Below are positions 8,531 through 52,358 of a DNA stretch of 64,000 bases, in pieces. Position numbers and translations under genes: made by a program. The DNA comes from an uncultured Gammaproteobacteria bacterium (GTDB taxonomy: Bacteria; Patescibacteriota; Patescibacteriia; Magasanikbacterales; UBA922): positions 338,111-402,110 of the forward strand of contig CAZQXB010000001.1 in assembly GCA_964597575.1 (NCBI GenBank). The letters run 5' to 3'. Within the stretch, counting starts at the first letter, position 1. Each line of letters opens with the position of its first letter. The notes beneath the pieces are model-generated. The model ran no database searches, was not told the origin of the DNA, and was given only the letters and a program-made list of their open reading frames with translations.

Positions 8531-9183
8531 AACCGGCATCCTTTCCCCCGTGCACCTTCTTTTCCTGTATAATGGAAAGTGCTGAAATAAATTCCTGCCG
8601 TCCACTGTATTACTTTGGTATGCCACTAGACCACCTCACCGATGAGGAGCTTGTTCGCGTCGTTTTGGAAAAAGACCCACAAGCATATAGTGAAATTATC
8701 CGCCGCTACGAAGGAAAGCTAACGCATTATGTGCGGAAGTTTATTCGTGATCCCGATGAACGGGCCGATGTTTTGCAAGATATTTTTATAAAAACATATA
8801 GAAATTTACATAGTTTTAAACCAGATAAAAAGTTTTCTTCGTGGGTGTACCGTATCGCACACAATGAGTCGATCAATGCATTAAAAAAATATGCGAAAGA
8901 AGTGGTTTCCTTGGATGAGTATGAATTTGAAATTATTGATAAAGAAATAGACGTAAAAAAAGATACCGATCACACCATTCTCCATGCAGAGATCGCGAAA
9001 GCTCTGGCGCATCTCAAGCCGAAATTTCGAGAGCCGCTCATCCTGTATTTTTTTGAAGAACGAAGTTACGATGAAATTAGTGATATCCTGCGCATTCCGA
9101 GAAGTACGGTCGGTGTTCTCCTCTTGCGCGGCAAAAAAATGCTCAAAGACATTCTCGATAAACATTCCTATGGAAAACGATAA
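8524..9183 (+). CDS. ECF-type RNA polymerase sigma factor (sigma-70 regions 2 and 4)
   Basis: Region 2 (DVLQDIFIKTYRNLHSFKPDKKFSSWVYRIAHNESINALKK) and region 4 (EPLILYFFEERSYDEISDILRIPRSTVGVLLLRGKKMLKDIL) are both present. The likely true start is Met at about 8619 (MPLDHLTDEEL); a TGTATAAT extended −10 lies at about 8565. Confidence 0.85.
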   Translation: MGKPASFPPCTFFSCIMESAEINSCRPLYYFGMPLDHLTDEELVRVVLEKDPQAYSEIIRRYEGKLTHYVRKFIRDPDERADVLQDIFIKTYRNLHSFKPDKKFSSWVYRIAHNESINALKKYAKEVVSLDEYEFEIIDKEIDVKKDTDHTILHAEIAKALAHLKPKFREPLILYFFEERSYDEISDILRIPRSTVGVLLLRGKKMLKDILDKHSYGKR

Positions 9184-10174
9184 TCGCCACACCGTAGAAC
9201 AATCGATCATGGAGAAGATTGCTGCTGGAGAAGTGAAACCCCGTTCGCGGTACATCTTTTTGGCTGAGCATGCAGCACTTGTTGTTGGATTTCTTTTTCT
9301 TCTTGTGGTAGCCGCACTTCTTTCGAGTATTGTTTTGTGGTACACCACATCGTCAGACATGTTTACCTTTTTAGCGTTCGGAAGAGAAGGGGTCCCTGCT
9401 TTTGTTGAATCACTCCCATATGCACTCATGATTGAAATAGTTTTGTGTGTCGTACTCGCGGCAGTGATTCTCCGGCATACCGACTGGTCCTACAAAAAAC
9501 CTCGTGGGTTTGTTATTTTTGCACTGGTTGGAGTTGTTTTTTTAGGAGGAAGCGCACTCGCTGCCACAAGTATTTCTGAGCGGGTGAATGCTCTTGCAGA
9601 AGCCACCCAAAAGAAGCATGAGTTTCTCCGTCCTTTTATTACCGAAGCGCCTGCGGTGCGCACTCGTGGTGTTACCGGCCGAGTGGCCGGAGTAGGGGAA
9701 GGATATGTAACGATTGAAACGGCAGCGGGCCCCATTGCGATCGATGTGGCGACTCTTCCGAATATGGGTTCAACCACTCTTATGCAAGGCGGGTATTTGA
9801 CGGTGGTTGGAAAGAATTCTGGCGAAGTATTTGAGGCTCGAAAAATCCGAATACTTGAGCAGAAAGAGGCGCCGGGGGTGCGACAGCGTGTTGAAGAACA
9901 TTTTGGCTTAGCAAACGATGAAACTTTTGTACAGAAAAGAGCTGTTATTCATCGAGAAAAGGGAAAGAAATATTGCCTGTTTACCTGTGAAAAAGAAAAA
10001 AAAGAGTTGTCGTACTGTGAAGAGTGGTGCGCGGCTCGGTTTCGTACAGGTCCTGAAGATTTGAAACCCTCGCCACTGCTCGAATCTGCTGAGGTTGCAC
10101 CAAGAGAGCGCTCCAGTCAAAAAGAAGAGCAACAAAACCGTAAAGGACCACCTCAATCTTCTTCATATGAGTGA
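9170..10174 (+). CDS. putative membrane anti-sigma factor (multi-TM, co-transcribed with the ECF sigma)
   Basis: The likely start MENDNRH overlaps the sigma stop. Three hydrophobic helices precede a soluble C-terminal domain. The assignment rests on position and is inferred; the long ORF 8984–10174 is an out-of-frame N-terminal extension over the sigma gene. Confidence 0.5.
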   Translation: MENDNRHTVEQSIMEKIAAGEVKPRSRYIFLAEHAALVVGFLFLLVVAALLSSIVLWYTTSSDMFTFLAFGREGVPAFVESLPYALMIEIVLCVVLAAVILRHTDWSYKKPRGFVIFALVGVVFLGGSALAATSISERVNALAEATQKKHEFLRPFITEAPAVRTRGVTGRVAGVGEGYVTIETAAGPIAIDVATLPNMGSTTLMQGGYLTVVGKNSGEVFEARKIRILEQKEAPGVRQRVEEHFGLANDETFVQKRAVIHREKGKKYCLFTCEKEKKELSYCEEWCAARFRTGPEDLKPSPLLESAEVAPRERSSQKEEQQNRKGPPQSSSYE

Positions 10175-12940: not shown

Positions 12941-14296
12941 TTAGGCGTGGCGGATAAGATCACTCATTGAACCGACCGGTAAAACCGTCAGTCCGGAAAT
13001 GGGTTTCGTTGGTGCCGCACTTTTTGGGGTAATAACTCGAGTCATTTTTAAATTCAAACATTCTTTGAGGCGTTTCTCTGCTTGGCGGACACTTCGTACT
13101 TCGCCACCCAAGCCAACCTCGCCAAATACTGCCATGTCATTGCCGAGTGCTTTGTCTTTGTATGCGCTCGCGACGGCGAGTGCGACTGCCAGGTCGGCTG
13201 CAGGTTCAGATGCTTTAATACCCCCAACCACATTTACATGAACATCGTATTGGCCAAGGGGAAGCCCGGCCCGGCGCTCCAGCACTGCAAGGAGCATGTG
13301 GAGACGGTTCACATCAAAACCGCTCGCTTTTCTTACGGGGTAGCCGAACATGGTTTTAGTCACCAAGGCCTGAATTTCTACAAGAAGGGGACGTGTACCT
13401 TCGAGTAAACAGGTAATGACTGACCCCGGCACGCTTTCTCCGCGTTCTTTCATCATGGCAAGGGAGGGGTTGGTTACTTCTTTTAATCCAAGTTCCGTCA
13501 TGTCGAACATCCCCACTTCATCAGTTGAGCCAAAACGGTTTTTCACTGCACGCAAGATACGCATATTGTGGTGGCGGTCGCCCTCAAGATAGAGAACCGT
13601 ATCTACTAAGTGTTCTAATGTTTTTGGTCCAGCCACATTCCCGTCTTTCGTCACATGTCCAATAAGAATAACGGTTGTACCAGAATGTTTAGCTGCGGTA
13701 AGGAGTTGGACGGTTGCGGCGCGTACCTGTGTAATATTTCCGGGTTCGCCAGGCACTTTATCGGAAAAGAGGGTTTGAATAGAATCGACAATAGCGAGAG
13801 GCGGCTTGGTTTGGCGAATCGTTTCAGCAATGGCTTCAACCATGGTGGCGTTTCCCAGTTGAATATCCTTTGTACCAAGCCCCAGGCGGTGAGCGCGGAG
13901 GGTTATTTGTTCTACAGATTCTTCTCCAGAAATATATACTGTTTTTGGAATAAGGCTGGCAAGTTGAAGAGAGAGTGTGGATTTTCCAATGCCAGGTTCA
14001 CCGCCCAAAAGAAGGAGACTTCCTGGTACAAATCCACCGCCAAGAACACGATCAAGCTCCTGTAGGTTGGTCGTGAGTCGCGCTGCTGCGTCTTGTTGTA
14101 TGTCTTTTAGTGCCGTAACTGGAACTGTGGGGTAGCTACCTTGACCGCTATCACGTGTCTGAAGGTTCATCGGAACCGCTTCTTCGGTGACTGATCCCCA
14201 TTCTCCGCACTCTAAACAGCGCCCAGTCCATTTTTGGAACTGAGCGCCGCATTTACTACAGGCGAATATGGATTTGGGAATTTTTTTGGCGGCCAT
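12941..14296 (-). CDS. radA: DNA repair protein RadA/Sms
   Basis: An N-terminal zinc ribbon (CSKCGAQFQKWTGRCLECGEWGS) is followed by a RecA-like ATPase (LLLGGEPGIGKSTLSLQ) and the KNRFG motif, with a Lon-like C-terminus. Confidence 0.9.
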   Translation of the reverse strand: MAAKKIPKSIFACSKCGAQFQKWTGRCLECGEWGSVTEEAVPMNLQTRDSGQGSYPTVPVTALKDIQQDAAARLTTNLQELDRVLGGGFVPGSLLLLGGEPGIGKSTLSLQLASLIPKTVYISGEESVEQITLRAHRLGLGTKDIQLGNATMVEAIAETIRQTKPPLAIVDSIQTLFSDKVPGEPGNITQVRAATVQLLTAAKHSGTTVILIGHVTKDGNVAGPKTLEHLVDTVLYLEGDRHHNMRILRAVKNRFGSTDEVGMFDMTELGLKEVTNPSLAMMKERGESVPGSVITCLLEGTRPLLVEIQALVTKTMFGYPVRKASGFDVNRLHMLLAVLERRAGLPLGQYDVHVNVVGGIKASEPAADLAVALAVASAYKDKALGNDMAVFGEVGLGGEVRSVRQAEKRLKECLNLKMTRVITPKSAAPTKPISGLTVLPVGSMSDLIRHA

Positions 14297-14311: not shown

Positions 14312-15580
14312 TTACCGTGCGCAAGGTGGAGGAGTATTGTCTCGGTATATTCCACCATTAGTATTTTGGTAAAATTCGTAAATCAGTCGACACACTTGCC
14401 CGGTATCGCACGTTCTCATGTTTCTAAGAGCATAATTGAATGCCCCCGTTCCTCCGTGATGGCCAACATATGCCAGATAGTAGACAGACTCTGGGGTACA
14501 GGTGTTTCCAAACGTTCGTTGAATTTTTTGTAAATTCATACGCAGGTAGCCTGTCCCAACCATGGTGCTCACTTCAGCGTTTTTAAGCGACTCATGAGCT
14601 GGGTTTCTCGCTGCACTACAGCCTTTTCCACGAATAATTCCCCCTCTGGTGCAATAGTCAGATAACCGTGCTCCAACGGCTTCGAAGCAACTATTCCTTT
14701 TGGTCTGAAACAGACCGGCGTAACAGCTCTCTTTGTTGACTGCATTTGGATTTTCTCGCGATTCTACCTGGGCGATTGCCTTCAGTAGGCGATAGTCAGC
14801 CGTCAGACAGTTAGCGTACTTCTTCAGAAGGTCCTCATCGTACGATTGTTGTGGCTCTCCATTTTTTCCGATTAAACCCGGGTTATCGAGTGGGCAGGCA
14901 TTAGAATCGATTGGTTTATTCAGTTGGGCACCGGCGGCATATTGGGCAGCGCGTAAGGCACCGTTATGATTTTCTTGAGCGATATCTGAGGCTGTCCATT
15001 TTCTATCACTGTTAGGGTTGGCTGTGATTTTACTTCGTATTGGAGATGCAACAGACTCATCGAGCGGAGGACCATGATAATCAAATTCGATTTCGCTTTC
15101 GTTAATATAGGGAATTGCCAAGGCTCGAAAACGCACCAATTCTGGGTTAATGGCGTATAAAAGAGAGTAAGAGCCCAGAACTAAAAGGAGGCCAGTTACG
15201 GCGTTCGTAATTCTTCCTTTGGCTTGACTAATCGTATCCGGGCTTCCACCAGAAATACTCCACTGAAAACCGCTGATGATAATAATGATGACGGCTACAA
15301 CACCCGAGATGCCGACAGCATAGCGATATATGGCTGCCAAGTATTCCGCAAGAAACGGAATTTGGAGAAATAACTGCCCGTCACCATTTTTTTCAGAACT
15401 TTGTTTCAGAATACTTTCGTCAGTCGTGAACTGAAGTCCGGGGATGGCAATGTTTGGGTCTGGAACAATAAAATCAACATTGTCCGCTACATTGTCTTGT
15501 GCGAAAAGCGCTGTTGGTAAAAAAAGCGTACAGGTGCTGAGGATGCAAAGGGTAAATAGAATTTGACGAAAGCGAGGCAT
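14312..15580 (-). CDS. secreted two-helix (VirB2/TrbC pilin-like) module fused to a family-1 lytic transglycosylase (SLT) domain
   Basis: A signal peptide is followed by PDPNIAIPG and LQIPFLAEYLAAIYRYAVGISGVVAVIIIIISGF…AVTGLLLVLGSYSLLYAINPELV (two hydrophobic helices). The C-terminus carries the SLT signature LLKAIAQVESRENPNAVNKESCYAGLFQ, with ten Cys in the C-terminal domain. Confidence 0.8.
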   Translation of the reverse strand: MPRFRQILFTLCILSTCTLFLPTALFAQDNVADNVDFIVPDPNIAIPGLQFTTDESILKQSSEKNGDGQLFLQIPFLAEYLAAIYRYAVGISGVVAVIIIIISGFQWSISGGSPDTISQAKGRITNAVTGLLLVLGSYSLLYAINPELVRFRALAIPYINESEIEFDYHGPPLDESVASPIRSKITANPNSDRKWTASDIAQENHNGALRAAQYAAGAQLNKPIDSNACPLDNPGLIGKNGEPQQSYDEDLLKKYANCLTADYRLLKAIAQVESRENPNAVNKESCYAGLFQTKRNSCFEAVGARLSDYCTRGGIIRGKGCSAARNPAHESLKNAEVSTMVGTGYLRMNLQKIQRTFGNTCTPESVYYLAYVGHHGGTGAFNYALRNMRTCDTGQVCRLIYEFYQNTNGGIYRDNTPPPCAR

Positions 15581-15586
15581 ACGAAA

Positions 15587-16732
15587 TCAAGGAGATTGTG
15601 GTGCGCGACGGATCCAAGTAAACGGATATGGGTTTCTTCTAATTTTGGCAAAATCAGCAAAGTTTTTTATCTTTGGATTAGCGTTTGGCTGGCGACCCCC
15701 GTCTCCTCCGGCTGCCTCAATCGTTTTTCCATCGCCGATGTACATGATGACGTGGCCAATCGTTTTTCCAGCGTCTCCCGCTTTCCATCCGAGTAAGTCT
15801 CCGGGTTGGAGCGCTCTTCCGTTTACCGTGTTTGTTTCATAATTAATCGAAGGGGTGCCGTCAGAGAGGTTTGGTTCGATTCTTTCTGATTGTGAACCAA
15901 ATATGTTCGCTGTTCCGCCGGGTAATGCGGGAAGTCCTGCACAATCGTATACATATGCTAGCATGCCTGAGCAGTCAAAACAAATATTTCCCTCCGGGCA
16001 GTAGTTGTTGTACTTCGTATATGCCGAATTGGTTTCAGAGTAGGGAGGAGGGCCACCCTTTCCGCCAAAACGATAGGCTACATGACCCTCAAGACTTTTT
16101 ATGATTTGTGGGACGGCTTCAATTCCCCCGGTTTTAGGGCAGAAGAGAGTGGTAGCAAGACCTTGTTCCCTCAAAAAATTTTCATTCGTTACGCGGGAAA
16201 CGATCGGGCGATTACTGTCGCCGCCTTCTTGGTACTCTAAATTTTTAGTAAGGATGTAGGGCACTTCAAGTGCGTAAAATCGAACCAGGTTTGGATTGAT
16301 CGCGTAGAGAATGCTGTAGGACCCTAAAAGGATAATGAGACCGGTAATTCCGTTGGTGATTCTTTTTTTTGCACCACTAATCGTTTCCGGGCTTCCTCCT
16401 GAGGCTGCCCACTGAAACCCGCCAAGAATGATTACGATAACGGCTATGATTCCGGAAATCCCAAGGGCATAGCGGTATATCCCGCGAATATATTCTCCTA
16501 AGAAGGGGATTTGAAGGATAATTCTACCGTCACGTGCATGGCGCTCGGCTGCCCTGCGTTTTATTTCAGCAGCCTCAGTAAACGAGATGCCAGGAATGTT
16601 AATATTCGGATCCGGCGTTATAATTGTAACATCGTCTACGGGGTTGCCGCTTTGGGCAATTCCCGCTTGTGGCAAAATAATTCCGGTAAGAAGAATGATG
16701 CTATAAAGAAAAGGGGAGAATATTTTTTTCAT
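15587..16732 (-). CDS. paralog of the upstream gene: same pilin-like N-module fused to an NlpC/P60 peptidoglycan endopeptidase domain
   Basis: The start was moved to MKKIFSPFLY (residue 62 of the track ORF). The N-module is about 70 % identical to its neighbour (ITPDPNINIPG; LQIPFLGEYIRGIYRYALGISGIIAVIVIILGGF…GLIILLGSYSILYAINPNLV). The C-terminus matches NlpC/P60 (CFDCSGMLAYVYDCAGLP…LQPGDLLGW…GHVIMYIGDGKTIEA). Confidence 0.8.
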   Translation of the reverse strand: MKKIFSPFLYSIILLTGIILPQAGIAQSGNPVDDVTIITPDPNINIPGISFTEAAEIKRRAAERHARDGRIILQIPFLGEYIRGIYRYALGISGIIAVIVIILGGFQWAASGGSPETISGAKKRITNGITGLIILLGSYSILYAINPNLVRFYALEVPYILTKNLEYQEGGDSNRPIVSRVTNENFLREQGLATTLFCPKTGGIEAVPQIIKSLEGHVAYRFGGKGGPPPYSETNSAYTKYNNYCPEGNICFDCSGMLAYVYDCAGLPALPGGTANIFGSQSERIEPNLSDGTPSINYETNTVNGRALQPGDLLGWKAGDAGKTIGHVIMYIGDGKTIEAAGGDGGRQPNANPKIKNFADFAKIRRNPYPFTWIRRAPQSP

Positions 16733-16739
16733 AGCAACG

Positions 16740-17384
16740 TTATAAACCGAGCAATGCCTCCCACCCTTCAATGGTTCGGGGGGTTTCAACTTGTTTGTTA
16801 TCGATAAAGAGCGTTGGTACTTCCTGTATACGGAGTGCGGTTGCAATTTGTTTGGTGGTGTCAAGTTCGCTTTGAACAGATGCACTCGTGGCGCATGCGG
16901 TGATTCTTTCCGCATTCAGCCCTGCTGCCACCACAGCCGCACTAATTGCTTCTTCAGAGACATTGTTTCCATTTTCAAAAATCGCTCGGGTATACAATTC
17001 AAATTTTCCTTGTTTTGCAGCACATAGGCCGTAGAGGTGTGCCTGGTCTGAGGGGGTTGGAATTCGAACCACCGGTAAGCTCTTCCAAATCATTTTTATT
17101 TTTCCAGGATGTTTGTTGAGTACAAGCCAAAACATTTGCATGCTTTCAGCGCATGCGGCACAGCCAAAATCTTCAAATGCAACAATTGTTTTGAGTGCGC
17201 GTTTGTCACCGATCACTGGGTCAAATGGAAGAATGGGAATGGCCACTTCAGTGCGATTCTCTTCGCCTGTATATTCATCCTCTGGATAGAGGGGTTCATA
17301 CTGACTGATGCGAAAGGCTAAAACACCAAGAGCAATGAGAATGGCAGGGCCAAAAGTAAAGAGAAGTTGTTTGTTCGTGATCAT
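16740..17384 (-). CDS. membrane-anchored DsbA-like thiol:disulfide oxidoreductase (thioredoxin fold, CxxC = CAAC)
   Basis: An N-terminal TM helix precedes …IVAFEDFGCAACAESMQMFW… and a DsbA-like C-terminus (…IQEVPTLFIDNKQ). Confidence 0.7.
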   Translation of the reverse strand: MITNKQLLFTFGPAILIALGVLAFRISQYEPLYPEDEYTGEENRTEVAIPILPFDPVIGDKRALKTIVAFEDFGCAACAESMQMFWLVLNKHPGKIKMIWKSLPVVRIPTPSDQAHLYGLCAAKQGKFELYTRAIFENGNNVSEEAISAAVVAAGLNAERITACATSASVQSELDTTKQIATALRIQEVPTLFIDNKQVETPRTIEGWEALLGL

Positions 17385-18613
17385 AGGGAAACACGGAAGA
17401 TACCGTCTTGATTTTTATCAGTAAAGTACACGGCGTTTTCGGTTTCGTTTACGGTGATTGTGTCGATGGTGTGGGTTTCTTCAAGGGTAATTTCCGTCTG
17501 GATACCTGTTTGTATGTCAATTCGAACGAGCCGATCAGGAACCGTTGAGGCAATTGCTGGGGCAAGCCCAGCGCCGGTTTCGAGCTCGGTTGGTACGCCA
17601 CAGTACAGGAATCGTTCGCTTTGAAATGAGCATTTCGACGCCCAGGTGTTAATATTGAGGGCACTTCTATTTTCTCCTAAACTCTCGATATTTCCATCAA
17701 CAACCCAGAGTTCGGGCTTAAAGTCTGAGCGTCCAGAGTACACGCTATAGAGAAGTTTGTTTCCTTGAGGAGACCACTTTGTTTCAAGTCCGCGACCCTC
17801 CACAATGGTCGAAGGAAAATTTTCATTTCGTTCTCCCAAGAAGAGGACTTCTTGGCGGTCAGCGCCTAATTGGTCGCCGGTTCGGGCAATGCCCACAATT
17901 TGTCGATTCGGTGACCAGTCCACAATAACTTTGTCTGCATTTGCCCCAAGAGGGAGAACCGCTGTTACGCCAGTACCGTCAGGGTTCGCGGTTACAAGAA
18001 AGCGATTTTCTTCCGAATATCCAATACTTTTTGCAATAATTTTTTCTCCTCCTGGGGAGAAAGCAAAATCAGTCCATTGTTTTGGTAGAGTGACTTGGCG
18101 TTTGGTGTCAAAATTGTAATAAATATTTGAGCCATCAGGGTATTCCATGATCGATTCATTTGTTTTTGATGACCAAGCCACATCTTGGACGTTATAAAAA
18201 ACTTGATCAGAGAGTGCCGCGAGTGTTCCATTCGGAAGAGCGCGGTAAAATTGCCCGTTGGTTTTATTGTAAAAATGAACACCGCCCCCAGATACTTTCG
18301 TCGTGCCTAGAGCAGGGTCTATGACAATTTTTTCTTCCCTTGGTGTGTCGGTCGTTCTTCCTCCAACCGGAACAGGTGTGGGTGTGCCTGGAGAAACAGG
18401 CAGAGGGGCGACTCCGGTTCCTGGTGTTCGACCGGTTGTAGTACCCGTGCCCGCCTGGGGTAACCCTCCGGGTGAAACAGGCTCTACAATGCCCGGCGGG
18501 GAAACAGGGGCAAGTTTTGATTTAAAAAATACCCGATACAGTGCGTACCCAAGAATAATTACCGCGAGAACAAATACGGCGGCAAAGGCAATGCGTTTTT
18601 GTTGGTCATCCAT
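17381..18613 (-). CDS. membrane-anchored TolB-like beta-propeller protein (PD40 repeats) with a Pro/Thr/Gly-rich linker
   Basis: An N-terminal TM helix (AFAAVFVLAVIILGYALY) and a P/T/G-rich spacer are followed by repeated FSPGGEKI / WSPNRQIV / WSPQGNKLLY PD40-like blades. Confidence 0.65.
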   Translation of the reverse strand: MDDQQKRIAFAAVFVLAVIILGYALYRVFFKSKLAPVSPPGIVEPVSPGGLPQAGTGTTTGRTPGTGVAPLPVSPGTPTPVPVGGRTTDTPREEKIVIDPALGTTKVSGGGVHFYNKTNGQFYRALPNGTLAALSDQVFYNVQDVAWSSKTNESIMEYPDGSNIYYNFDTKRQVTLPKQWTDFAFSPGGEKIIAKSIGYSEENRFLVTANPDGTGVTAVLPLGANADKVIVDWSPNRQIVGIARTGDQLGADRQEVLFLGERNENFPSTIVEGRGLETKWSPQGNKLLYSVYSGRSDFKPELWVVDGNIESLGENRSALNINTWASKCSFQSERFLYCGVPTELETGAGLAPAIASTVPDRLVRIDIQTGIQTEITLEETHTIDTITVNETENAVYFTDKNQDGIFRVSL

Positions 18614-18657
18614 AGAAAGAAAGTTACACGGGTAAGGGTTGGTATATAAAATTTCTT

Positions 18658-19536
18658 TTACGACTGCTGACTTTCCAGGTATTGCCGTCGCTCTTGGCGA
18701 ATTCTCTGCTCTTCCTTGGTAATTTCTTCCACCGACGCCGTTGTCTTTTCATTTATTTTTTTTGCCGCTTCTTTCGCGTTTCGGTCTGTCTTGGCTGCTT
18801 TCGCGGGCATCTCACGTATTTCCCAGCCCAGTTTGCGTGAGTATGCGTGAAGGAGGACTCCGACCGCTGCGCCATCGAAAACGGCTGCGAGCCCGTCAAA
18901 GATCCACTTGCGAATTCTTTTTTTCATCATCTTTCGTAAGAGATCGGTTTTCCCTCTGGTTATTGAGGCCACTGCCCCTAACTCTGTTTGGTCGCTCTGT
19001 TGCTGAAGGCTGCGCTGTTTGGCAAGTTTGTTCAGTCGTTCGTCGTATCCTCTGAGAACTGGATCGTTTTGGTTCGTGCCATTTCTTCCATCACCCTCTT
19101 CATTTGATTCGCTCCCACCGCTGCCTCCCGAAACCCGGCTGTTTGATTCTGTTTTTTGATTAGCAAATTGTTCAGATTCAGGAACAGAGAAGGGGTTCTC
19201 AGCTGCGGATTTTTTTGGTTGGTTCGGGTCACCATCTTGAGTGAGCGCTGGGTCTGAATTTACGGAACTCGATGTGGTTGGAGCCACACCTTCGCTTGTG
19301 GGCTGTGGTGAAGCACGTCGTTGCCCGCCTTCGTCTTTTCCCACAAACGCCGGGGAGGCAGTTCCTGTACCACGACTTGAGTTTGCGTAGCCTTTGGGAT
19401 TCGTTTGAATTTCAGATATTGTTTTCTGCCGGCTTTGTTCGGCACGAGCTTCGGCTGATGCGAGGGTCGCCAACGATAGGCCGTAGGCGAGGAATAATTT
19501 TTTAAGCGGGTTCCCCGCACGGTGTAGGGCGGCCAT
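18658..19536 (-). CDS. secreted low-complexity (S/T/Q/E/G-rich) protein with a C-terminal hydrophobic helix
   Basis: A signal-peptide-like N-terminus (LFLAYGLSLATLASAEA) is followed by a long disordered region and a C-terminal WIFDGLAAVFDGAAVGVLLHAY helix. Codon periodicity is plausible, but confidence that it is a real gene is only moderate. Confidence 0.45.
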   Translation of the reverse strand: MAALHRAGNPLKKLFLAYGLSLATLASAEARAEQSRQKTISEIQTNPKGYANSSRGTGTASPAFVGKDEGGQRRASPQPTSEGVAPTTSSSVNSDPALTQDGDPNQPKKSAAENPFSVPESEQFANQKTESNSRVSGGSGGSESNEEGDGRNGTNQNDPVLRGYDERLNKLAKQRSLQQQSDQTELGAVASITRGKTDLLRKMMKKRIRKWIFDGLAAVFDGAAVGVLLHAYSRKLGWEIREMPAKAAKTDRNAKEAAKKINEKTTASVEEITKEEQRIRQERRQYLESQQS

Positions 19537-19539
19537 AGC

Positions 19540-19893
19540 TTAGGAAAAGGATGATACAAGAGGTTTTCCTGTACGATGTTCAAGTGTTGCGACAAGTACC
19601 CCATACTCGTCCATAAGATAGTCCACGGTTTCTTTGAGGGGTTCGCCATACAGGAGCGCCTCGCGGGAAAGTTTCATGGCGATCTCTTCGGCTCGAAGAT
19701 CAAGAATTTTTTGTGCTGCTTGCACACTTTTTTCTTCGTCTTGATTTTGAAGTGCTTGTTCAAAAAGTTCTGTGTAGTGGTCGAGCGCTTCGGTAACTTG
19801 TTTTTTTCGAGCGTCATCAACTCTACGCGGTTCAGAGCGTGTCCGATCGCGTTCGAGTTGGCCTGCCCAATCCTGTTCTTGCTCTCTCTCCAT
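19540..19893 (-). CDS. small coiled-coil hypothetical protein immediately downstream of clpC
   Basis: The 117-aa ORF is acidic and helical and sits 3 nt after the clpC stop. Confidence 0.45.
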   Translation of the reverse strand: MEREQEQDWAGQLERDRTRSEPRRVDDARKKQVTEALDHYTELFEQALQNQDEEKSVQAAQKILDLRAEEIAMKLSREALLYGEPLKETVDYLMDEYGVLVATLEHRTGKPLVSSFS

Positions 19894-19896
19894 AGA

Positions 19897-22422
19897 TTAC
19901 AGTAGAGTGAGATGTTCTTTTTTGACAGTAAGGGTGAGTGTTTTTTTTCGTTTGTTTGGTTTTTTCATGGTGGCAAGGAGGAGGTCATGCACCAGTCGCT
20001 CAATCGTTGCGTCAATATGACGGGCTCCGGTTTCAGGCGACCAGGCAGAACGGGCGATTGCCTCTGTTGCTACCGGTTCTGTAACCAAGTCAAGCGCATT
20101 TTTGCCAAGTTCTTTCGCAAGATGTTCTAGTTTGTGGGCGACAATATGCTGCACATCCTCCTTTTGAAGCGGGCGAAAAATATGAACCGAAGAAAGGCGG
20201 CCAATGAGTGGTGCGCCGAATTCATCTTTGAGTTTGGTTTCAATACGTTTGAGGCGCTCTGGAATCATGCCTGCTTCAGATGCACCGCTAAATCCAAAAT
20301 GATGTGCTTTAAATTCTTCTGCTCCGATATTCGTGGTCAGTACAATAATGGCGTGGCGAAAACGAATGTGTTTTCCGCTTGAGTCGGTCAATTCTCCCTC
20401 ATCGAGAATCTGAAAGAGAAGTTTCTGTACGTCAGTATGAGCTTTATCAAATTCATCAAATAAAATAACGGCATGAGGACGTTTTTTAATCGCATCAGTA
20501 AAACGATTACGCTCTTTGTGTCCAATATATCCGGCTGGAGAGCCAAGAAGTTTTGAGACGCTGTGCGCCTCAGCAAACTCATTCATGGAAAAGGTAATAA
20601 GTGCTTGGTCATCCTGAAAGAGCGTTTTGGCCAATTGTTTTGCGAGCTCTGTTTTTCCAACTCCTGAAGGACCGGCAAATAGGAATGAAGCGCGGGGTCG
20701 TTTATCATTCGTGCCGCGTAAAAAACTCCGTTCAAGTGTTTTACCAAGTGACTGAATAACCTCATTTTGTCCAAAAATATGTTTCCCAAGTTCACCAGGA
20801 AGTTCGCTTAAAATATCAAGGTCAGTCTGAATAAGTCGTTGCACTGGAATATGGAGGCGATTACTCGCGGCGCGTGCGATATCCGTGACGGTCACTGCTC
20901 GACGAGGGTTTGCCTCGGGCATTTTCTTTTTTTCATCTCGAGCAAGAATTTTTTCAAGGCGTTCAATGTGTTCTTTAGAACTCACGGCATCTTTTAGACG
21001 CTCTTCACGAATCGCAATTTCCTTTTCTTCACGAAGATTTTCAATGGTGCGAAGAAGATCATGCTTTTTTTTGCTCGCTGCGGTTTCTGGGGTTGCGGCT
21101 CGAACCGCGGCACAGGCTTCGTCAATAAGGTCGATGGCTTTATCGGGTAAATATGCATCATGAATATATTTTACCGACAAATCAATAGCGAGTTGAATGG
21201 CAGATTCCTCAATAGTTACTGTGTGGTAGCGTTCATAGTAGGGAGCCAGGCCTTGGAGAATAGAAAAGGCAACTTCTGGGGTTGGTTCATCAATCGTAAC
21301 CGTCTGAAACCGACGCTCGAGGGCAGGGTCTGAAGTAATAAATTTTTGATACTCATCAAATGTGGTGGCACCGATACAATGCAACTGGCCGCGTGCGAGA
21401 GCTGGTTTCAAGATGTTCGCCGTGTCGAGCGTGCCCATGTTTCCGCCACTGCCGATAATGTTATGAATTTCATCAATAAAAAGAATACATTCCGGGCGGC
21501 GGGTTACTTCTTCAATAAGTTGTTTTAAGCGACCCTCAAATTCACCACGGTACATGGTGCCTGCGACAAGGAGAGGAAGGTCAAGGGCAAAAATCTTTTT
21601 ATGTTTAAGGACAGCGGGTACTTTCCCTTCAGAAATAAGTTTGGCGAGGCCCTCAACGATGGCGGTTTTTCCGACCCCCGGTTCTCCAATAAGTACAGGA
21701 TTATTTTTGGTACGACGACACAGAATATGAATCACTCGCTCAATCTCTTTTTCCCGGCCAATAACAGGGTCTATTTGTTTTTGAACGGTATTCTTGGTCA
21801 ATTCAATGGCGTAGGTTTCGAGTGTAGAGTTCGTTTTTTTGCTTGGCCGCGCTTTTGGAAGTGGTGCTTCTGGAGGCTCTTCGCTTGCATTGTCTTCAAG
21901 AAGATCTTGGATTTGCTCCATTGATTCAGCTACATCGGTCATGTCTGGAAAGCGACTGAGGCCGTGGAAGATTGTTTCAAGTTCGCTAAGAAGGGGTTCC
22001 CGGGAGAGCTTTTTTTGAGCAAAAAGGGTGACAATTTCTCCTGATTCTTCTCGGAGGAGTCCGTGAAGAAGGTGTTCTGTGCCTACATAGGAATGACCAT
22101 GTTCATAGGCAATAAGCATGGCCCTCTCTAGAGCTTTTTTGGCTGCCACACTTAAGGTTGGGGCAATTTCAGTACGTTCTGCTTTGGCGACTGCTTTTTG
22201 CTTTTCTGCATCTTTTAAAACCGTGGCGTATAAGTTTTTTGAAGTTAAATCAAGTCGGCGAAGCACTTCTTCAGCCACAGAACCCGATTCTTCGCTTAAT
22301 CCAAATAAAAGATGAAGGGGGGTAGCCCCAGGTTCTTTTAAGCTGCCGGCCAGGGAAAGGGCTCGGGCAATGGCATTTTTGAGATGGGTCGAAAACTGAT
22401 CAAGAAGTTTTTCCGTATTCAT
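19897..22422 (-). CDS. clpC: AAA+ chaperone ClpC (Clp protease ATP-binding subunit; ClpC/ClpB family)
   Basis: N-terminal Clp repeats are followed by two AAA+ modules (GEPGVGKTAI…; FLFAGPSGVGKTELAK…). The middle domain is short, and an HFGFS loop is compatible with a ClpP-docking loop, which favours ClpC over ClpB. Confidence 0.85.
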   Translation of the reverse strand: MNTEKLLDQFSTHLKNAIARALSLAGSLKEPGATPLHLLFGLSEESGSVAEEVLRRLDLTSKNLYATVLKDAEKQKAVAKAERTEIAPTLSVAAKKALERAMLIAYEHGHSYVGTEHLLHGLLREESGEIVTLFAQKKLSREPLLSELETIFHGLSRFPDMTDVAESMEQIQDLLEDNASEEPPEAPLPKARPSKKTNSTLETYAIELTKNTVQKQIDPVIGREKEIERVIHILCRRTKNNPVLIGEPGVGKTAIVEGLAKLISEGKVPAVLKHKKIFALDLPLLVAGTMYRGEFEGRLKQLIEEVTRRPECILFIDEIHNIIGSGGNMGTLDTANILKPALARGQLHCIGATTFDEYQKFITSDPALERRFQTVTIDEPTPEVAFSILQGLAPYYERYHTVTIEESAIQLAIDLSVKYIHDAYLPDKAIDLIDEACAAVRAATPETAASKKKHDLLRTIENLREEKEIAIREERLKDAVSSKEHIERLEKILARDEKKKMPEANPRRAVTVTDIARAASNRLHIPVQRLIQTDLDILSELPGELGKHIFGQNEVIQSLGKTLERSFLRGTNDKRPRASFLFAGPSGVGKTELAKQLAKTLFQDDQALITFSMNEFAEAHSVSKLLGSPAGYIGHKERNRFTDAIKKRPHAVILFDEFDKAHTDVQKLLFQILDEGELTDSSGKHIRFRHAIIVLTTNIGAEEFKAHHFGFSGASEAGMIPERLKRIETKLKDEFGAPLIGRLSSVHIFRPLQKEDVQHIVAHKLEHLAKELGKNALDLVTEPVATEAIARSAWSPETGARHIDATIERLVHDLLLATMKKPNKRKKTLTLTVKKEHLTLL

Positions 22423-22477: not shown

Positions 22478-23371
22478 CTACATTTCGCGGAGTCGGCGAA
22501 TTCTTTCTTCGGCAGGGGGATGGGTGGAAAAAAGCGTTACAAAACTTTTTCCGCGAAAAGGGTTTGCGATGAATAAGTGGGCGGTTGCCGCACTTGCCCC
22601 TGGGAGGGGTGTTTTACTTTGGGATATTTTCTCTAAAGCTCGAGCAAGGCCCTCAGGGTACCGTGTGAGGAGGGCTCCTGAGGCGTCAGCTAAATACTCC
22701 CGTTTTCGAGAAATGGCGAGTTTAATTAATTCTGCCACGATAGGGGAGACGATAAGGAGCGCGATTCCAAGGATTGCGAGAATATTACTTCCTCGATCCC
22801 GATCATCGCGGCTGGTGAGGTTGAAGCGTAAAAACCAATCTGCTAAAAGTGAAAGGGTGCCGACTAAGACAACGACCACGGTCATAACACGAATGTCATA
22901 GTTTTTGACATGAGAAAGCTCATGAGCAATTACCCCTTCGAGCTCCTCATTTTCGAGTGCCTCAAGAAGCCCGGTCGTAACCGCGATCGAAGCGTGTTCT
23001 GGGTCGCGACCCGTAGCAAAGGCATTCAGTGCGCTCGTTGGAATAAGGTGAATTTTAGGGAGGGGCTGCCCATTCGCAAGGCAAAGATTTTCTACAATGC
23101 GATAGAGGTAGGGGTTATCTTCTTTTTTTATTTCCTTTGCTCCAGAAGACCAGAGCGCCATTTTATCCCCGGCAAAATAGCTGGTCAAAGTGAGGATGCT
23201 GGAAAGAGCTACAGCTCCGACGACTGACTCGTAGCCGAATCGGCCGGTGGCATTGAGAAGGATCCCGATAGTAATAATAAGACCCCCGACTAATGCCATG
23301 AGAAACCAGGTTTTGCGTTTGTTACTATCGATCTGGTCGTACATAGAAATTTTCTTCAGAAAAAGTCGCAC
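22478..23371 (-). CDS. htpX: HtpX-family M48 zinc metalloprotease
   Basis: TM helices flank the HEXXH motif (IAHELSHVKNYD). Confidence 0.85.
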   Translation of the reverse strand: MRLFLKKISMYDQIDSNKRKTWFLMALVGGLIITIGILLNATGRFGYESVVGAVALSSILTLTSYFAGDKMALWSSGAKEIKKEDNPYLYRIVENLCLANGQPLPKIHLIPTSALNAFATGRDPEHASIAVTTGLLEALENEELEGVIAHELSHVKNYDIRVMTVVVVLVGTLSLLADWFLRFNLTSRDDRDRGSNILAILGIALLIVSPIVAELIKLAISRKREYLADASGALLTRYPEGLARALEKISQSKTPLPGASAATAHLFIANPFRGKSFVTLFSTHPPAEERIRRLREM

Positions 23372-23404
23372 CTGCGCGGTGCAGATGCTGCTTTGGCGAA
23401 AAGA

Positions 23405-23971
23405 TTAGAACGAAACTTTCACGTTTTCGCGTTCCTTCGGATCGGCAACTTCAAAGAATTCCATGGCTTTGAACGAAAACATGTTGGCAATAATGTTTGT
23501 TGGGACTGTTTCAATAGAAGTATTGAGATCGCGAACTTGACTGTTGTAGAAGCGGCGAGATGCTTGAATTTTATTTTCGGTATCAGAAAGTTCATCCATA
23601 AGCTGAGCCATATTCTGATTGGCCTTGATTTCTGGGTACGCTTCAACGGCAATCTGCAAACGACCAAGCATGCCTCCGAGGAGGGACTCGCTTTTTGCTA
23701 ATTCTTGGGTGTTGCCAGATGCTTGCGCTGCCATGGCACCTGACCGAGCTTTGGTAATGTTTTCAAGAAGTTCTCGTTCATGGGTGAGAAAACCTTTGAC
23801 GCTTTCAACTAAATTCGGAATAAGGTCATGGCGTCGTTTTAACTGCACATCAATATCGCTCCAGCCCTCTTTCGCTCGATTTCTGAGGGACACCAAGCGA
23901 TTATAAGTGAACACCACCCACAGTACTACCACCGCAATAATAGCGATAAGAATCCACACACCAGTTGTCAT
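23405..23971 (-). CDS. lemA: LemA family protein
   Basis: An N-terminal TM helix is followed by the LemA core (YNRLVSLRNRAKEGWSDIDVQLKRRHDLIPNLVE…). It is paired with htpX as usual. Confidence 0.85.
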   Translation of the reverse strand: MTTGVWILIAIIAVVVLWVVFTYNRLVSLRNRAKEGWSDIDVQLKRRHDLIPNLVESVKGFLTHERELLENITKARSGAMAAQASGNTQELAKSESLLGGMLGRLQIAVEAYPEIKANQNMAQLMDELSDTENKIQASRRFYNSQVRDLNTSIETVPTNIIANMFSFKAMEFFEVADPKERENVKVSF

Positions 23972-24078
23972 AGACAGATATTTAGGGTAATAAATGGAGT
24001 ATCCGACTTGCTCTTATAGGAGCGCTTTCTGTATACTCTACAGGTAATGGTAGCCTGAATAACCTCTTTTCGTCAATT

Positions 24079-25260
24079 ATGGGAACTATCCTCCTTTTTT
24101 TAATTATTCTAACGGCGCTCGTTCTTGTTCATGAACTTGGCCATTTTTTGACTGCGCGTTTTTTCGGAATGAAAGTGCTTGAGTTTGGAGTTGGGTTTCC
24201 TCCCCGAGCTTTTGGATGGTATAAAGATCCAAAAACAGGAAAGCGCGTTTTTGTTTGGCCAAAGAAAAAAACTCCAGGTCTTCAGGATACGGTCGGTGGC
24301 GGTGCTCGGGAAGAAGAAGTGCCCGGTGTTTTATATACCGTGAATTGGTTACCGATTGGCGGGTTTGTCAAAATTAAAGGCGAAAACGGGGGAGACGAAA
24401 AAACGAATGACAGTTTTGCGGCAGCTCCTGTGTGGAAACGACTCATTGTGCTCGTGGCCGGGGTGGTCATGAATATTATTTTAGCGAGCCTTTTGTTCGG
24501 AATCGGTTTTATGAAAGGGCTTCCAACCGATGTATCCGGCGGAATTCCTGAAGGGTCGTCGCTTGTCGGGGCTCCCATGATTGTGGTTCAGGAAGTTGTC
24601 TCTGATTCTCCGGCCGAAAAAGCCGGGGTAAAACCAGGCGACAAAATTGTGCGAATAAATACGTTCGTGCCACCAAACGCTGCAGCCATGAGTGAGTCAG
24701 TTCTTTTAAATGGTGAAAAGCCGCTCACATTAGAACTTTCCCGCGAAGAAGGGCTTGTCGTGGTAGAGGTAATTCCAGGAGTGGTGGAGTCTGCGGGTGA
24801 AACTTCTCCTAAGCTCGGGGTTCGTTTGGCTGATGTTGGGCTCGTGCAGTTTGCTTGGTATAAAGCGATTCCTGAAGGGTTTGTTGCTGCGTTTTGGAGT
24901 TTGCTTGGTATTTTTCAAGCACTTTGGCTTTTAGTTGTCAATCTTGTGACAGGGAAAGGGTTACTTTTCGAAGTCTCTGGCCCCGTGGGGATTGCGACCG
25001 CCGTAGGGCAAAGTGCAGAGCTCGGGATTTCATATCTTATCCATATTGCAGCAATGATTTCACTCTCGCTTGCCGCCATGAATATCCTTCCTATTCCAGC
25101 GCTTGACGGGGGCCGCGCTTTTTTTGTGGCGCTCGAAGGAATTTTCCGACGAAAAATTCCCCCTGCATTTGAAGGTGTGGCACATACGATTGGTTTTGTC
25201 CTTCTCATGATTTTGATTATGGTCGTTACGGGTCGAGATATTCTTAAATTATTTTCTTAA
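24079..25260 (+). CDS. rseP: RseP-like site-2 protease (M50 family, PDZ-containing)
   Basis: HEXXH in TM1 (LVHELGHFLTARFFG), a PDZ region and a C-terminal NILPIPALDGG motif. Confidence 0.85.
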   Translation: MGTILLFLIILTALVLVHELGHFLTARFFGMKVLEFGVGFPPRAFGWYKDPKTGKRVFVWPKKKTPGLQDTVGGGAREEEVPGVLYTVNWLPIGGFVKIKGENGGDEKTNDSFAAAPVWKRLIVLVAGVVMNIILASLLFGIGFMKGLPTDVSGGIPEGSSLVGAPMIVVQEVVSDSPAEKAGVKPGDKIVRINTFVPPNAAAMSESVLLNGEKPLTLELSREEGLVVVEVIPGVVESAGETSPKLGVRLADVGLVQFAWYKAIPEGFVAAFWSLLGIFQALWLLVVNLVTGKGLLFEVSGPVGIATAVGQSAELGISYLIHIAAMISLSLAAMNILPIPALDGGRAFFVALEGIFRRKIPPAFEGVAHTIGFVLLMILIMVVTGRDILKLFS

Positions 25261-34268: not shown

Positions 34269-35195
34269 ATGGTTCGTTCCATCATCAGCGCGCTCGTCGC
34301 GGTCGTTCTCTGCCTCTTCACGAGCGCCCCGGCCTTCGGGCTGGCGCTCGGCATGGTCGGTGACGAGCAGAAGCTCGACATCCCCGTGTCCGCGTTCAAC
34401 GGCAACGTCGATTCCCGCGCCAGCATCATGGTGCAGGACACCTCTCGGCCTCTCGACACCTCGGCGATCAGCGCCATGCAGGTCCAGTGGGATCGGGCGG
34501 AGCGCCGTTCTCACGTCCACGCCAAGCGAGGTACTCGTCCCTTCAGGTGCCCGCAGTACTACACGAATCGTGATCTGGCCGAGACGATGGCGTTCACGGA
34601 GCGCCGTCTCTCAGACTCGTCTGTCACGGACGATGCTCGGCCCACGCTCTACGGCATGCGCTATGCCGGAACGTTCTGTTCGCTCGGCAAGCCTGCCAAG
34701 CGTATGAACAAGTCGGATCCGACGCCCGCTGCGGACGAGATCGCTCTCATGATCCCTGTCACGAAGCCGGCACCCCTCAGCCCTCCGAAGACCGGCGGCA
34801 TGCGCCTCGATCCCAACGGCGACACCAACTCGGATTTGACCGATAGCGACTATCTCCGTACGTTCGGTGTCTCGATGAACCTCGTCGCACCGAGTCCGAT
34901 CCAGGAGGTCGTCGGCTCGCGTCAGCTCATGGGCACGGACGAGAATGATCCGTCCTGCGCTACCCTCGAGATCCTCTTGGGCCGTGATCACCACCCTCTC
35001 GGTGTGGTCCCGACCCCCGTCTCTTCTCGTTCGTCCGGCGATCGCGTCTCCCTCTTGTCGAATCTCGACCCGGAAAATGCTGGTGCACATGTCTCGCCAA
35101 AGGAGCTCGCCCGACTGATCGGCTTCCGCGCCGCCACATACAAGGAATCGAGCGGCAACTATAGTTATCACTGGTCACCTGGTCCGCCGCGCTAA
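34269..35195 (+). CDS. secreted hypothetical protein encoded in a high-GC island (probable horizontally acquired gene)
   Basis: The 308-aa ORF has an N-terminal signal peptide (MVRSIISALVAVVLCLFTSAPAFG). GC is about 65–70 % with GC-rich third codon positions, against about 45 % in flanking genes. Overlapping ORFs on both strands are stop-free artefacts of the GC-rich DNA. Confidence 0.6.
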   Translation: MVRSIISALVAVVLCLFTSAPAFGLALGMVGDEQKLDIPVSAFNGNVDSRASIMVQDTSRPLDTSAISAMQVQWDRAERRSHVHAKRGTRPFRCPQYYTNRDLAETMAFTERRLSDSSVTDDARPTLYGMRYAGTFCSLGKPAKRMNKSDPTPAADEIALMIPVTKPAPLSPPKTGGMRLDPNGDTNSDLTDSDYLRTFGVSMNLVAPSPIQEVVGSRQLMGTDENDPSCATLEILLGRDHHPLGVVPTPVSSRSSGDRVSLLSNLDPENAGAHVSPKELARLIGFRAATYKESSGNYSYHWSPGPPR

Positions 35196-35296: not shown

Positions 35297-35324
35297 TTGA
35301 CAGAATAATGTATTCTGGTACACT
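35297..35324 (+). promoter_or_regulatory. putative promoter of the rplJL operon; the long structured L10 leader follows to about 35469
   Basis: TTGACA, 16–17 nt, then TACACT. The leader contains the hairpin CTTCCTTTCGGGGAAGAAG. Confidence 0.35.
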
Positions 35325-35469
35325 GTACGCAAAACCATAGACAGTAGCTTCCACGTAAATGTGGATTAAATATGCTACCGAGGTGACTCCTATTTCTTCC
35401 TTTCGGGGAAGAAGTTTCAAGGTCGAAGTTCTCGGGGTTGTCTGTGGCTACACAGATTTTTTTGTTTTT

Positions 35470-35994
35470 ATGGCTAAAACCAGGCAACAAAAAGAAGAAG
35501 CGCTGAATGTGCTTCAAACCAATCTAAAGAGTGCGAAAGCAACCGTGTTTGCGAATTTTCAAGGGCTCAAAGTAAAAGAGTCTGAAGAACTTCGTGCAAT
35601 CTGCCGCAAAGAACGTATCGTTTACGTGGCAAGCAAAAAAACACTTATCGCTCGCGCGCTTAAAGATGCTGGGTTTGATACGGATGCAGATGCTTTTTCT
35701 GGTGGTGTCGCAGCAGTATTTGCACAAGGTGATGAAGTTGGCGCAGCCAAAGTTATTGCTGATTTTGCAAAGACTCATGAAGTGGTTACCATCTTTGGTG
35801 GAATTTTAGAAGGAAAGTTTATTGACGCAAATAGCGTAAAGGCGCTCGCAAAATTACCAACACGGCAGCAGCTTTTGGGTCAATTGGTCGGTACATTGAA
35901 CGCTCCAGTATCTGGATTCGTCAATGTGTTGGCTGGCAACTTACGCGGTCTTGTTACGGTACTTAATGCCGTGAAAGATAAACAAGCAGCGTAA
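35470..35994 (+). CDS. rplJ: 50S ribosomal protein L10
   Basis: MAKTRQQKEEALNVLQTNLKSAKATVFANFQGLKVKESEELR… The start was moved to residue 38 of the track ORF. Confidence 0.9.
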   Translation: MAKTRQQKEEALNVLQTNLKSAKATVFANFQGLKVKESEELRAICRKERIVYVASKKTLIARALKDAGFDTDADAFSGGVAAVFAQGDEVGAAKVIADFAKTHEVVTIFGGILEGKFIDANSVKALAKLPTRQQLLGQLVGTLNAPVSGFVNVLAGNLRGLVTVLNAVKDKQAA

Positions 35995-51030: not shown

Positions 51031-51073
51031 TTTGCCGGGTTACAGATGTGACCCAGAAAAGAGATACCTGAAA

Positions 51074-52184: not shown

Positions 52185-52358
52185 TATACTTATTTTTACG
52201 CGATACCACAATGATCTGAGGTGGCACTCAGGGAGTATGTGTCGCACAACTGAGCTAAAAAGTGTCCTAGTAAATTACTAGGAAACTTGGGTGGAACCCC
52301 CCGAAATAACCGGGGCCCAAGGCCGTTTTTATCGGGCCTTTTTATTTTTTTTTAGGCC
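52185..52358 (+). ncRNA. putative T-box riboswitch leader (glycine-type) with terminator
   Basis: The roughly 175-nt leader contains AACTTGGGTGGAACC, which matches the T-box consensus AANNNGGGTGGNACC. It is followed by alternative hairpins and AAGGCC…GGCCTT plus a T9 run immediately before glyQS. Confidence 0.45.

Follow-up and report, generated by a model that had tools for sequence, protein, structure and literature searches.

Patescibacteria, or the candidate phyla radiation (CPR), account for a large share of bacterial diversity. Pilins of family PF18895 are a known component of the patescibacterial type IV secretion system (T4SS), a system akin to the MPF-FATA type of monoderm conjugation and often encoded near dnaA; the VirB2-like genes of this system lie in arrays, and most such genomes are without a recognisable VirB1 (PMC12102498). 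For Candidatus Southlakia epibionticum, the one species in which this has been tested, the T4SS cluster including six small VirB2-like pilins is described as essential for epibiotic growth, its role being unknown (PMC10633639, PMC12857230, PMC11665869). The structure-based annotation table for this species assigns two lysozyme-like domains and a cysteine peptidase to SEML1_0006 and a DD-peptidase / M15B-M23-like domain to SEML1_0007, and both genes adjoin VirB4 (SEML1_0008) and were scored essential by transposon sequencing (Tn-seq) (PMC10633639). Here a block of six minus-strand genes (g1 to g6) is described, which lies between clpC and radA in a 64,000-nucleotide stretch of DNA (contig CAZQXB010000001.1, positions 338,111 to 402,110; hereafter the window) from a member of the Magasanikbacterales, and the last two genes of which encode proteins predicted to join a VirB2-type hairpin to peptidoglycan hydrolases.

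In the reading best supported, for which the chances appear about even, this block is inherited vertically and encodes a module for wall remodelling that is tethered to the membrane, acts in a VirB1-like way and cuts the wall of the producer itself. In the literature searched, no description was found of the clpC-radA block, of hairpin-hydrolase fusions or of a design in which hairpin-anchored wall hydrolases have swapped heads, which agrees with the suggestion of an earlier note, made from the letters of the window, that the system is undescribed. The gene set was taken from a list of the open reading frames (ORFs) of the window and checked against independent gene calls on the source contig, both being concordant. 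Relatives were collected by a scan with g3 over one genome per GTDB species, which returned 515 stretches, and the best 80 of the 515 loci were analysed; the proteins of the window were mapped onto all ORFs of the kept loci. The exact g3 protein is present on the source contig (913,817 bp) and on Logan contigs. The slot between g4 and radA yielded 81 proteins from the window and the relatives, which were aligned.

The gene g5 (15587..16732, minus strand) encodes a protein of 381 amino acids (aa) with a signal peptide, an anchor module (16253..16624, minus strand; approximately residues 37-160) and an NlpC/P60 endopeptidase domain (15704..16078, minus strand), the last identified by Pfam and by alignment to solved enzymes. 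Its start is placed at the ATG at 16732, which matches the gene call on the source contig; the longest ORF, with its start at 16915, would overlap g4. The gene g6 (14312..15580, minus strand) encodes a Cys-rich protein of 422 aa, which consists of a signal peptide, an anchor module (15101..15469, minus strand; residues 38-160), a disordered linker and a lysozyme-like domain of the SLT type of lytic transglycosylases (14321..14992, minus strand). Both proteins combine a match to T4SS_pilin with one to a hydrolase family, NlpC/P60 in g5 and SLT in g6, so the description of them in the earlier note as paralogous pilin-like proteins fused to peptidoglycan hydrolases is borne out.

One conserved stretch of approximately 120 residues is common to the slot proteins, with the consensus IPGLxFS...YLxIPFLGEYI, a hydrophobic helix, SGGxxExIxxAKKRI, a second hydrophobic helix and GSYTILYTINPxLVxF (x represents any amino acid), and a search seeded with the module of g6 located it in 79 of the 81. 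In g5 it comprises an ectodomain strand, a VirB2-type two-helix hairpin with a basic loop, and a second ectodomain strand. The AlphaFold2 (AF2) model of g6 (predicted local distance difference test, pLDDT, 88.2) contains a helix at residues 2-20 (the signal peptide), a strand at 70-74, helices at 76-108 and 114-144, a strand at 154-157, a low-confidence linker at 163-188 and a helical domain at 197-420. This model and a hydrophobicity scan agree on the layout of a pilin, namely a signal peptide and, after it, a pair of hydrophobic helices with a short basic loop between them; in g6 this loop reads SGGSPDTISQAKGRI. The two short strands, which flank the hairpin on its outer side, may pair into a small juxtamembrane element.

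The matches to T4SS_pilin (34.9 bits for g5 and 34.8 bits for g6) lie above the curated cut-off of 26.6 bits, and 56 of the 81 slot proteins match this family (Pfam, E<=1e-3), while the match to TrbC (PF04956) reaches only 13.6 bits and falls below its cut-off. In size the proteins depart from a stand-alone pilin with a precursor of about 70-190 aa: besides g5 and g6, those of the relatives measure 360-970 aa. At least 191 residues follow the module in all 79 proteins that possess it (median 270), and more than 70 precede it in 55 of them, N-terminal extensions being upper bounds since the ORF starts of the relatives are first-start calls. A hidden Markov model of the module, run against all six frames of the whole window, detected copies in g5 and g6 only, and in the relatives the module occurs in this slot only, within 10 kb on either side. 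Among protein clusters represented at 50% identity, a profile of the g5 and g6 modules matched 33,293 with E<=1e-3 and 6,504 with E<=1e-10, and the 150 best are almost all 300-1,100 aa long. A homology search with g6 returned 10 proteins only, and when the module sequence was compared with the PDB, no match rose above chance level.

The same hairpin family was also seen in locus L086 (10001-17365; ENA ERZ23495671 scaffold_370), where three adjoining genes of 822, 543 and 1057 aa contain tandem T4SS_pilin hairpins and look like pilin arrays fused into single polyproteins, with no VirB4 within 10 kb. Counts of such tandem hairpins are 7 matched stretches in P0144, up to 11 in P0141 (1147 aa) and 10 in P0172.

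The catalytic parts are predicted to belong to peptidoglycan-acting families in nearly all cases. Besides T4SS_pilin, the 81 slot proteins match SLT (17), Lipase_GDSL_2 (13), VanY (13), Amidase_2 (10), Peptidase_M15_4 (7), Peptidase_M15 (7), Peptidase_C39_2 (6), Peptidase_M23 (4), Exo_endo_phos (2), Glyco_hydro_18 (1), NLPC_P60 (1), CHAP (1) and Metallophos (1). In g5 (NLPC_P60, 39.5 bits) the motifs DCSG (Cys254) and GHV (His327) align to the catalytic cysteine and histidine of solved NlpC/P60 enzymes. In g6 (SLT, 33.2 bits) the motif QVES, where E273 is the predicted catalytic glutamate (codon 14762-14764), aligns to the IES motif of E. coli MltE, and the best PDB folds for the helical domain are the lytic transglycosylases MltE (4hjy) and MltF. 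As the catalytic motifs are intact in these alignments, g5 and g6 look like active enzymes. Both show the features by which VirB1-like proteins are recognised, i.e. membrane-anchored SLT and/or CHAP-NlpC/P60 domains with their catalytic residues. A role in wall remodelling, as the earlier note had proposed, fits this domain content and the intact motifs (VES; DCSG...GHV).

The modules of g5 and g6 are 64% identical, while their catalytic parts are unrelated. The same holds for within-genome pairs (n=12), the modules of which are 56-93% identical and the C-terminal parts of which are without detectable similarity in 10 of the 12; the extreme is the pair of locus L036, with 93% identical modules and unrelated C-terminal parts. 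Of 21 pairs, 10 consist of modules that have no nearer relative in the sample than the partner from their own genome, and the modules are possibly homogenised within genomes. Judging from the alignments, the catalytic heads are replaced repeatedly with the module kept, and since a constant module is combined with unrelated C-terminal parts, the module is the constrained and probably partner-facing part of these proteins.

The gene order common to the relatives is clpC-(g1)-g2-g3-g4-[one to three large module proteins]-radA. In all 58 loci with enough sequence clpC is co-directional and lies upstream of g3 at a distance of at most 3.2 kb. In 75 of 77 loci g4 is the gene immediately after g3, and a module-bearing hydrolase occupies the g4-radA slot in every locus that reaches it. 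The slot runs directly into radA in most relatives; radA is the next conserved gene after it in 45 of 52 loci, and in the remaining 7 it is recG, with no radA between. Look-ups begun from module proteins also arrived at the same clpC-radA slot. The genes were not found dispersed over unrelated loci, and the view of the earlier note that they form a co-conserved unit stands. Conservation in hundreds of species shows that the genes are no chance ORFs, and as order and position are the same across the loci analysed, the block belongs to the vertically inherited core genome of the Magasanikbacteria lineage, order-wide. Named g3 homologues are mostly from Candidatus Magasanikbacteria or Patescibacteria. 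Many relatives with the locus (L006-L085) are deposited as 'uncultured Gammaproteobacteria' or 'Methanosarcinales archaeon' third party annotation (TPA) assemblies, which are probably taxonomic mislabels.

In Bacillus subtilis the corresponding order is ctsR-mcsA-mcsB-clpC-radA-disA. As clpC runs straight into radA in Firmicutes, the six genes look inserted, and the earlier note had taken them for an accessory apparatus dropped into a housekeeping operon. A recently acquired island is nevertheless extremely improbable. Every species genome of the order that is informative has the block in this one position, and relatives of g3 are found in 515 stretches; its GC content (0.46-0.49) equals that of the flanks and the rest of the window; its borders carry no integrase, transposase, repeats or tRNA, and no mobility genes were found; and a scan of viral contigs returned no relatives. 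A phage cassette resembling holin-endolysin pairs was likewise rejected, as relatives are lacking among viral contigs and the block forms part of the conserved core chromosome.

The protein of g3 (17381..18613, minus strand; 410 aa) contains an N-terminal transmembrane (TM) helix (residues 3-29), a disordered Pro/Gly-rich stalk (41-88) and a beta-propeller (93-410), as seen in an AF2 model with a mean pLDDT of 85.5, in which the propeller is probably seven-bladed. The TM anchor and propeller proposed in the earlier note were thus recovered; its PD40 assignment applies to some relatives only, since the window protein has no Pfam match. A Foldseek search against PDB gave only generic similarities, the best being to the propeller of tricorn and to WD40 propellers (E 2e-11 and weaker). 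Identity to g3 over the full length is about 50% among more than 100 Magasanikbacteria proteins, in which C328 and C338 are invariant. Orthology of g3 to TolB was considered and rejected, as the TolB N-domain is missing, no tol/pal genes lie nearby and the fold matches are to generic propellers only. In locus L002 (14506-15588) the slot also holds a second propeller-like protein of 360 aa, with weak PD40 and Aladin matches and no anchor module.

The protein of g4 (16740..17384, minus strand; 214 aa) is identified as a TM-anchored DsbA-like thiol:disulfide oxidoreductase, in agreement with the membrane DsbA-like protein of the earlier note. It matches Thioredoxin_4 (80.4 bits, 2e-22) and DSBA (37.4 bits, 3e-9), has a TM helix at residues 6-24 and contains the motif C75-A-A-C78, so that the thioredoxin fold, the CxxC motif and the membrane anchor expected of a DsbA-like enzyme are all predicted; the CxxC motif is kept in 78 of 81 relatives. 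The slot proteins contain 2.44% cysteine (median 14 per protein), as against 0.47-0.49% in ClpC and RecG, and the position of g4 directly before these Cys-rich exported enzymes supports a putative client relationship.

The protein of g2 (18658..19536, minus strand; 292 aa) has a low-complexity N-terminal part rich in S, A, G, N and E, one TM helix (approximately residues 211-229) and a K/E-rich helical C-terminal tail of about 60 aa, and has no Pfam match. A positional counterpart with the same architecture and a length of 170-770 aa is present in nearly all of the 65 loci with clpC-g3 sequence. These counterparts possess an acidic low-complexity N-terminal part of 100-650 aa and end in a K/E-rich helical tail, and with a hydrophobicity cut-off 55 of the 63 that have at least 150 aa contain one or two TM segments, which lie 15-150 aa before the C-terminus and mostly 60-90 aa before it. 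They could not be linked across loci by sequence with jackhmmer, and we infer their equivalence from position and architecture. The earlier note had described g2 as a disordered secreted protein with a C-terminal TM helix. The low-complexity character and the TM near the C-terminus hold, whereas secretion does not fit: an N-terminal signal peptide is absent in 63 of 64 relatives and the counterparts contain 0.2% cysteine (median 0), for which reasons the long acidic part is more likely cytoplasmic than secreted, and the bulk of g2 is probably cytoplasmic. An anti-sigma factor was rejected as a candidate for g2, as there is neither an anti-sigma domain nor an adjoining sigma factor.

The product of g1 (19540..19893, minus strand) is a protein of 117 aa without a TM helix or signal peptide. 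A hydrophobicity scan detected no hydrophobic segment, Pfam and NCBIfam gave no match, and a homology search returned only the protein itself; it looks like a soluble, cytoplasmic, helical protein. The earlier statement that every product of the block is extracytoplasmic or membrane-bound therefore fails for g1, and probably for most of g2. Of 65 loci, 41 contain a member of the g1 family, in each case as the gene next after clpC. In locus L028 (1972-4761) the ClpC protein continues at its C-terminus into a g1-like domain (residues 842-927), a fusion for which an assembly or stop-codon artefact is also possible. Given this constant position and the fusion, g1 probably belongs with ClpC rather than with the surface machinery.

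The stretch from clpC to radA consists of eight co-directional minus-strand genes, of which g1-g6 are the inner six. The first is clpC (19897..22422), encoding an AAA+ unfoldase of 841 aa (Pfam Clp_N, AAA, AAA_lid_9, AAA_2 and ClpB_D2-small), and the last is radA (12941..14296), encoding a protein of 451 aa (Pfam Zn_ribbon_LapB, AAA_25, ATPase and ChlI/Lon_C). From clpC to radA the intergenic distances are 3, 3, 44, -4 (the overlap of the g3 stop with the g4 start), 7, 6 and 15 nucleotides (nt), so the tight packing and the coordinates reported earlier are correct. An operon may be deduced from this spacing.

The close arrangement also bears on a further explanation, according to which the genes are not one system, being conserved neighbours with separate jobs (a general DsbA, a surface propeller and ordinary autolysins), the order of which is kept by small genomes that rarely rearrange. 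In favour of this, genes of the flanks (lemA, htpX, recG, PGM and IMPDH) likewise tend to be kept in the vicinity; the array shows some looseness, as g1 is dispensable (present in 41 of 65 loci) and radA is missing after the slot in 7 of 52; and the protein contacts within the block are proposed from adjacency only. On the other hand, g3 and g4 overlap and several gaps in the window are single-digit, the order g3-g4-hydrolase is kept where the flanks vary, as with lemA-htpX, the spacing of which drifts by kilobases, the Cys-rich substrates come immediately after the oxidoreductase gene, and the module proteins occur in this slot only within the stretches examined. Taken with these points, a set of independent neighbours is considered unlikely.

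If the block acts as a wall-remodelling module of the producer, its parts would be arranged as follows. The hairpin would sit in the cytoplasmic membrane with its basic loop inside, the preceding segment and the following enzyme both facing the wall, and would tether the enzymes at the outer face of the membrane. The oxidoreductase g4 would oxidise the many cysteines of the slot enzymes and of the propeller g3 and would fold the enzymes, and g3, perhaps with the bitopic g2, may dock on the ectodomain strands of the module, by which the enzymes would be held or gated. The enzymes would cleave the peptidoglycan of the producer locally, for growth or separation; alternatively, they may open the wall to machines that span the envelope, for example the patescibacterial T4SS, in the manner of the VirB1-type hydrolases of Gram-positive conjugation systems. 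In this arrangement g1 would be a ClpC-associated cytoplasmic protein outside the surface machinery.

Several observations weigh against this proposal. We infer from gene adjacency alone the contacts of g3 with the module, of g4 with its substrates and those of g2. A scan for promoters and terminators gave no more than the level of shuffled sequence, leaving the operon status of the block to the spacing. Foldseek found no pilin for the hairpin of the g6 model, only generic helical hairpins. The T4SS and type IV pilus (T4P) ATPases, for which the earlier note had suggested looking, were not detected among the ORFs of at least 300 aa in the 64-kb window, and neither a T4SS gene nor one for a T4P ATPase is among the Pfam-labelled genes within 10 kb in three relatives (L001, L002 and L004). 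Neither the hairpin nor the VirB1-like enzymes therefore lie in a T4SS cluster over these ranges, and with no T4SS gene near the block, the link to such a system is drawn from family membership and analogy. Finally, the turnover of heads and the occasional domains that do not act on the wall (Exo_endo_phos 2, Metallophos 1, GDSL 13) suit housekeeping autolysins no better than an arsenal directed at a host.

Such an arsenal, the main rival reading, possible though somewhat doubtful in our estimate, would be a weapon or feeding tool in which the hairpin is a true VirB2-type pilin module, and the T4SS would extract the proteins from the membrane and display or deliver their swappable heads at the contact between epibiont and host, breaching the wall and envelope of the host. 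The slot proteins show the layout of polymorphic toxins and effectors, a conserved N-terminal part followed by a hypervariable enzymatic C-terminal part, and their heads include GDSL esterases/lipases, Exo_endo_phos and metallophosphoesterase domains besides wall enzymes. The hairpin scores above the T4SS_pilin cut-off, the patescibacterial T4SS has essential arrays of VirB2-like pilins and a mostly unrecognisable VirB1 (PMC12102498), and the same enzyme classes are listed within the essential T4SS cluster of S. epibionticum. Against this, no cognate immunity gene follows the enzyme genes in the window, there being no ORF in the 6-nt gap between g5 and g6 or the 15-nt gap between g6 and radA; T4SS genes are missing over the ranges given above; proteins of 380-970 aa with domains on both sides of the hairpin (55 of 79 have more than 70 aa before it) are hard to pack into a VirB2-type filament; and the constant location of the block, with housekeeping genes around it in each species, accords with a core function of the cell. 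A bolder proposal, which is decidedly unlikely, is that the slot proteins are VirB2-type pilins of modular build, such as are not known from T4SS pili, which the T4SS would assemble or present so that their exchangeable heads (lytic transglycosylase, endopeptidase, amidase, carboxypeptidase, esterase and phosphoesterase) digest the host envelope on contact, with the propeller and the DsbA-like protein as dedicated assembly factors.

Upstream (22478-25260), the array is preceded by lemA-htpX (htpX encoding an M48 protease) and faces a divergent gene for an RseP-like M50 site-2 protease with a PDZ domain, and together with ClpC these form a cluster of envelope and proteostasis genes; in relatives lemA-htpX lie 2-4 kb further upstream. 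Elsewhere in the window, two isolated genes of high GC content (34269-35195 and 51032-52075, both on the plus strand; bins of 0.576 and 0.612 vs about 0.46) encode products with a signal peptide or lipobox (LSAC), have no Pfam match and no overlapping Rfam match, and are possible horizontal acquisitions. An Rfam scan of the window returned only tRNAs. Sub-threshold matches were noted to an L10 leader at 35317-35473 on the plus strand (40.4 bits vs 44) and to a T-box leader at 52202-52322 on the plus strand (39.3 bits vs 93, E 8e-7), the latter shortly before a gene at 52359 that encodes a class II aminoacyl-tRNA synthetase. Three large ORFs have no Pfam match, namely 36516-38594 (minus strand, 692 aa), 39669-41195 (plus strand, 508 aa) and 8984-10174 (plus strand, 396 aa), the last of which comes after an extracytoplasmic function (ECF)-type sigma factor gene in the gene calls of the source contig.

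The block would act as a 'Rosetta stone', as it fuses a pilin-type hairpin to the wall-cutting classes that stand beside VirB4 in Saccharibacteria and so ties both together, and it sets a propeller and a dedicated oxidoreductase beside the wall enzymes. With it a defined gene set, present order-wide, is at hand for studies of the way in which ultra-small monoderm cells open or remodel peptidoglycan, whether in their own wall or in that of a host, and it would represent an unusual mode of evolution, in which a conserved membrane module has its catalytic heads replaced again and again. If the slot proteins were modular pilins, a concrete feeding role would follow for the essential, functionally unexplained T4SS and pilin arrays of CPR bacteria; if the block were only a housekeeping autolysin operon, the annotation would still be useful for hundreds of genomes in which these genes are now 'hypothetical'.

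Compared with known systems, g4 resembles DsbA and BdbD as a TM-anchored CxxC protein of the thioredoxin fold encoded beside Cys-bearing exported clients, and B. subtilis BdbDC is a substrate-dedicated oxidoreductase for the competence pseudopilin ComGC. It differs in that no DsbB/BdbC-like partner is seen in the block, and its client relationship is a putative one. The propeller g3 shares with TolB of the Tol-Pal system an extracytoplasmic beta-propeller, weak PD40-type matches in some relatives and a wall-related context, but it is TM-anchored and without the TolB N-domain, neither TolQRA nor Pal accompanies it, and the organism is monoderm. The modular type IV pilins PilB and PilC of Streptococcus sanguinis (PMC8179133) also carry a functional module grafted onto the C-terminus of a pilin, which is an analogy only, as they belong to an unrelated pilin superfamily (type IV, not T4SS VirB2) and the grafted parts are adhesins, not wall enzymes.

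The patescibacterial VirB2-like pilins (PF18895; PMC10633639, PMC12102498) are closer, sharing with g5 and g6 the hairpin family, the phylum and the occurrence as fast-diverging tandem paralogues. They are small (about 126-185 aa in S. epibionticum), stand-alone and located in the virB4 cluster, whereas the hairpin of the g5/g6 type is a module of enzymes of 380-970 aa, with extra ectodomain strands on both sides and a clpC-radA location. SEML1_0006 and SEML1_0007 come from the same phylum and belong to the same enzyme classes as the heads fused to the Magasanikbacteria hairpin; no PF18895 match was seen for them, they stand beside virB4, and the pilins are separate genes there. The VirB1-type hydrolases PrgK of pCF10, TraG of pIP501 and TcpG of pCW3 are membrane-anchored and extracytoplasmic and combine SLT with NlpC/P60-CHAP, the same pair as g6 plus g5. 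In these proteins both domains are on one chain with a single N-terminal TM helix, encoded within a T4SS operon, while in the block each of the two activities has a chain and a pilin-type hairpin of its own, the kind of catalytic domain differs from species to species and the genes lie outside a T4SS cluster. PrgK, TraG and TcpG cut the wall of the producer locally, and it is this same action that is proposed for the enzymes of the block.

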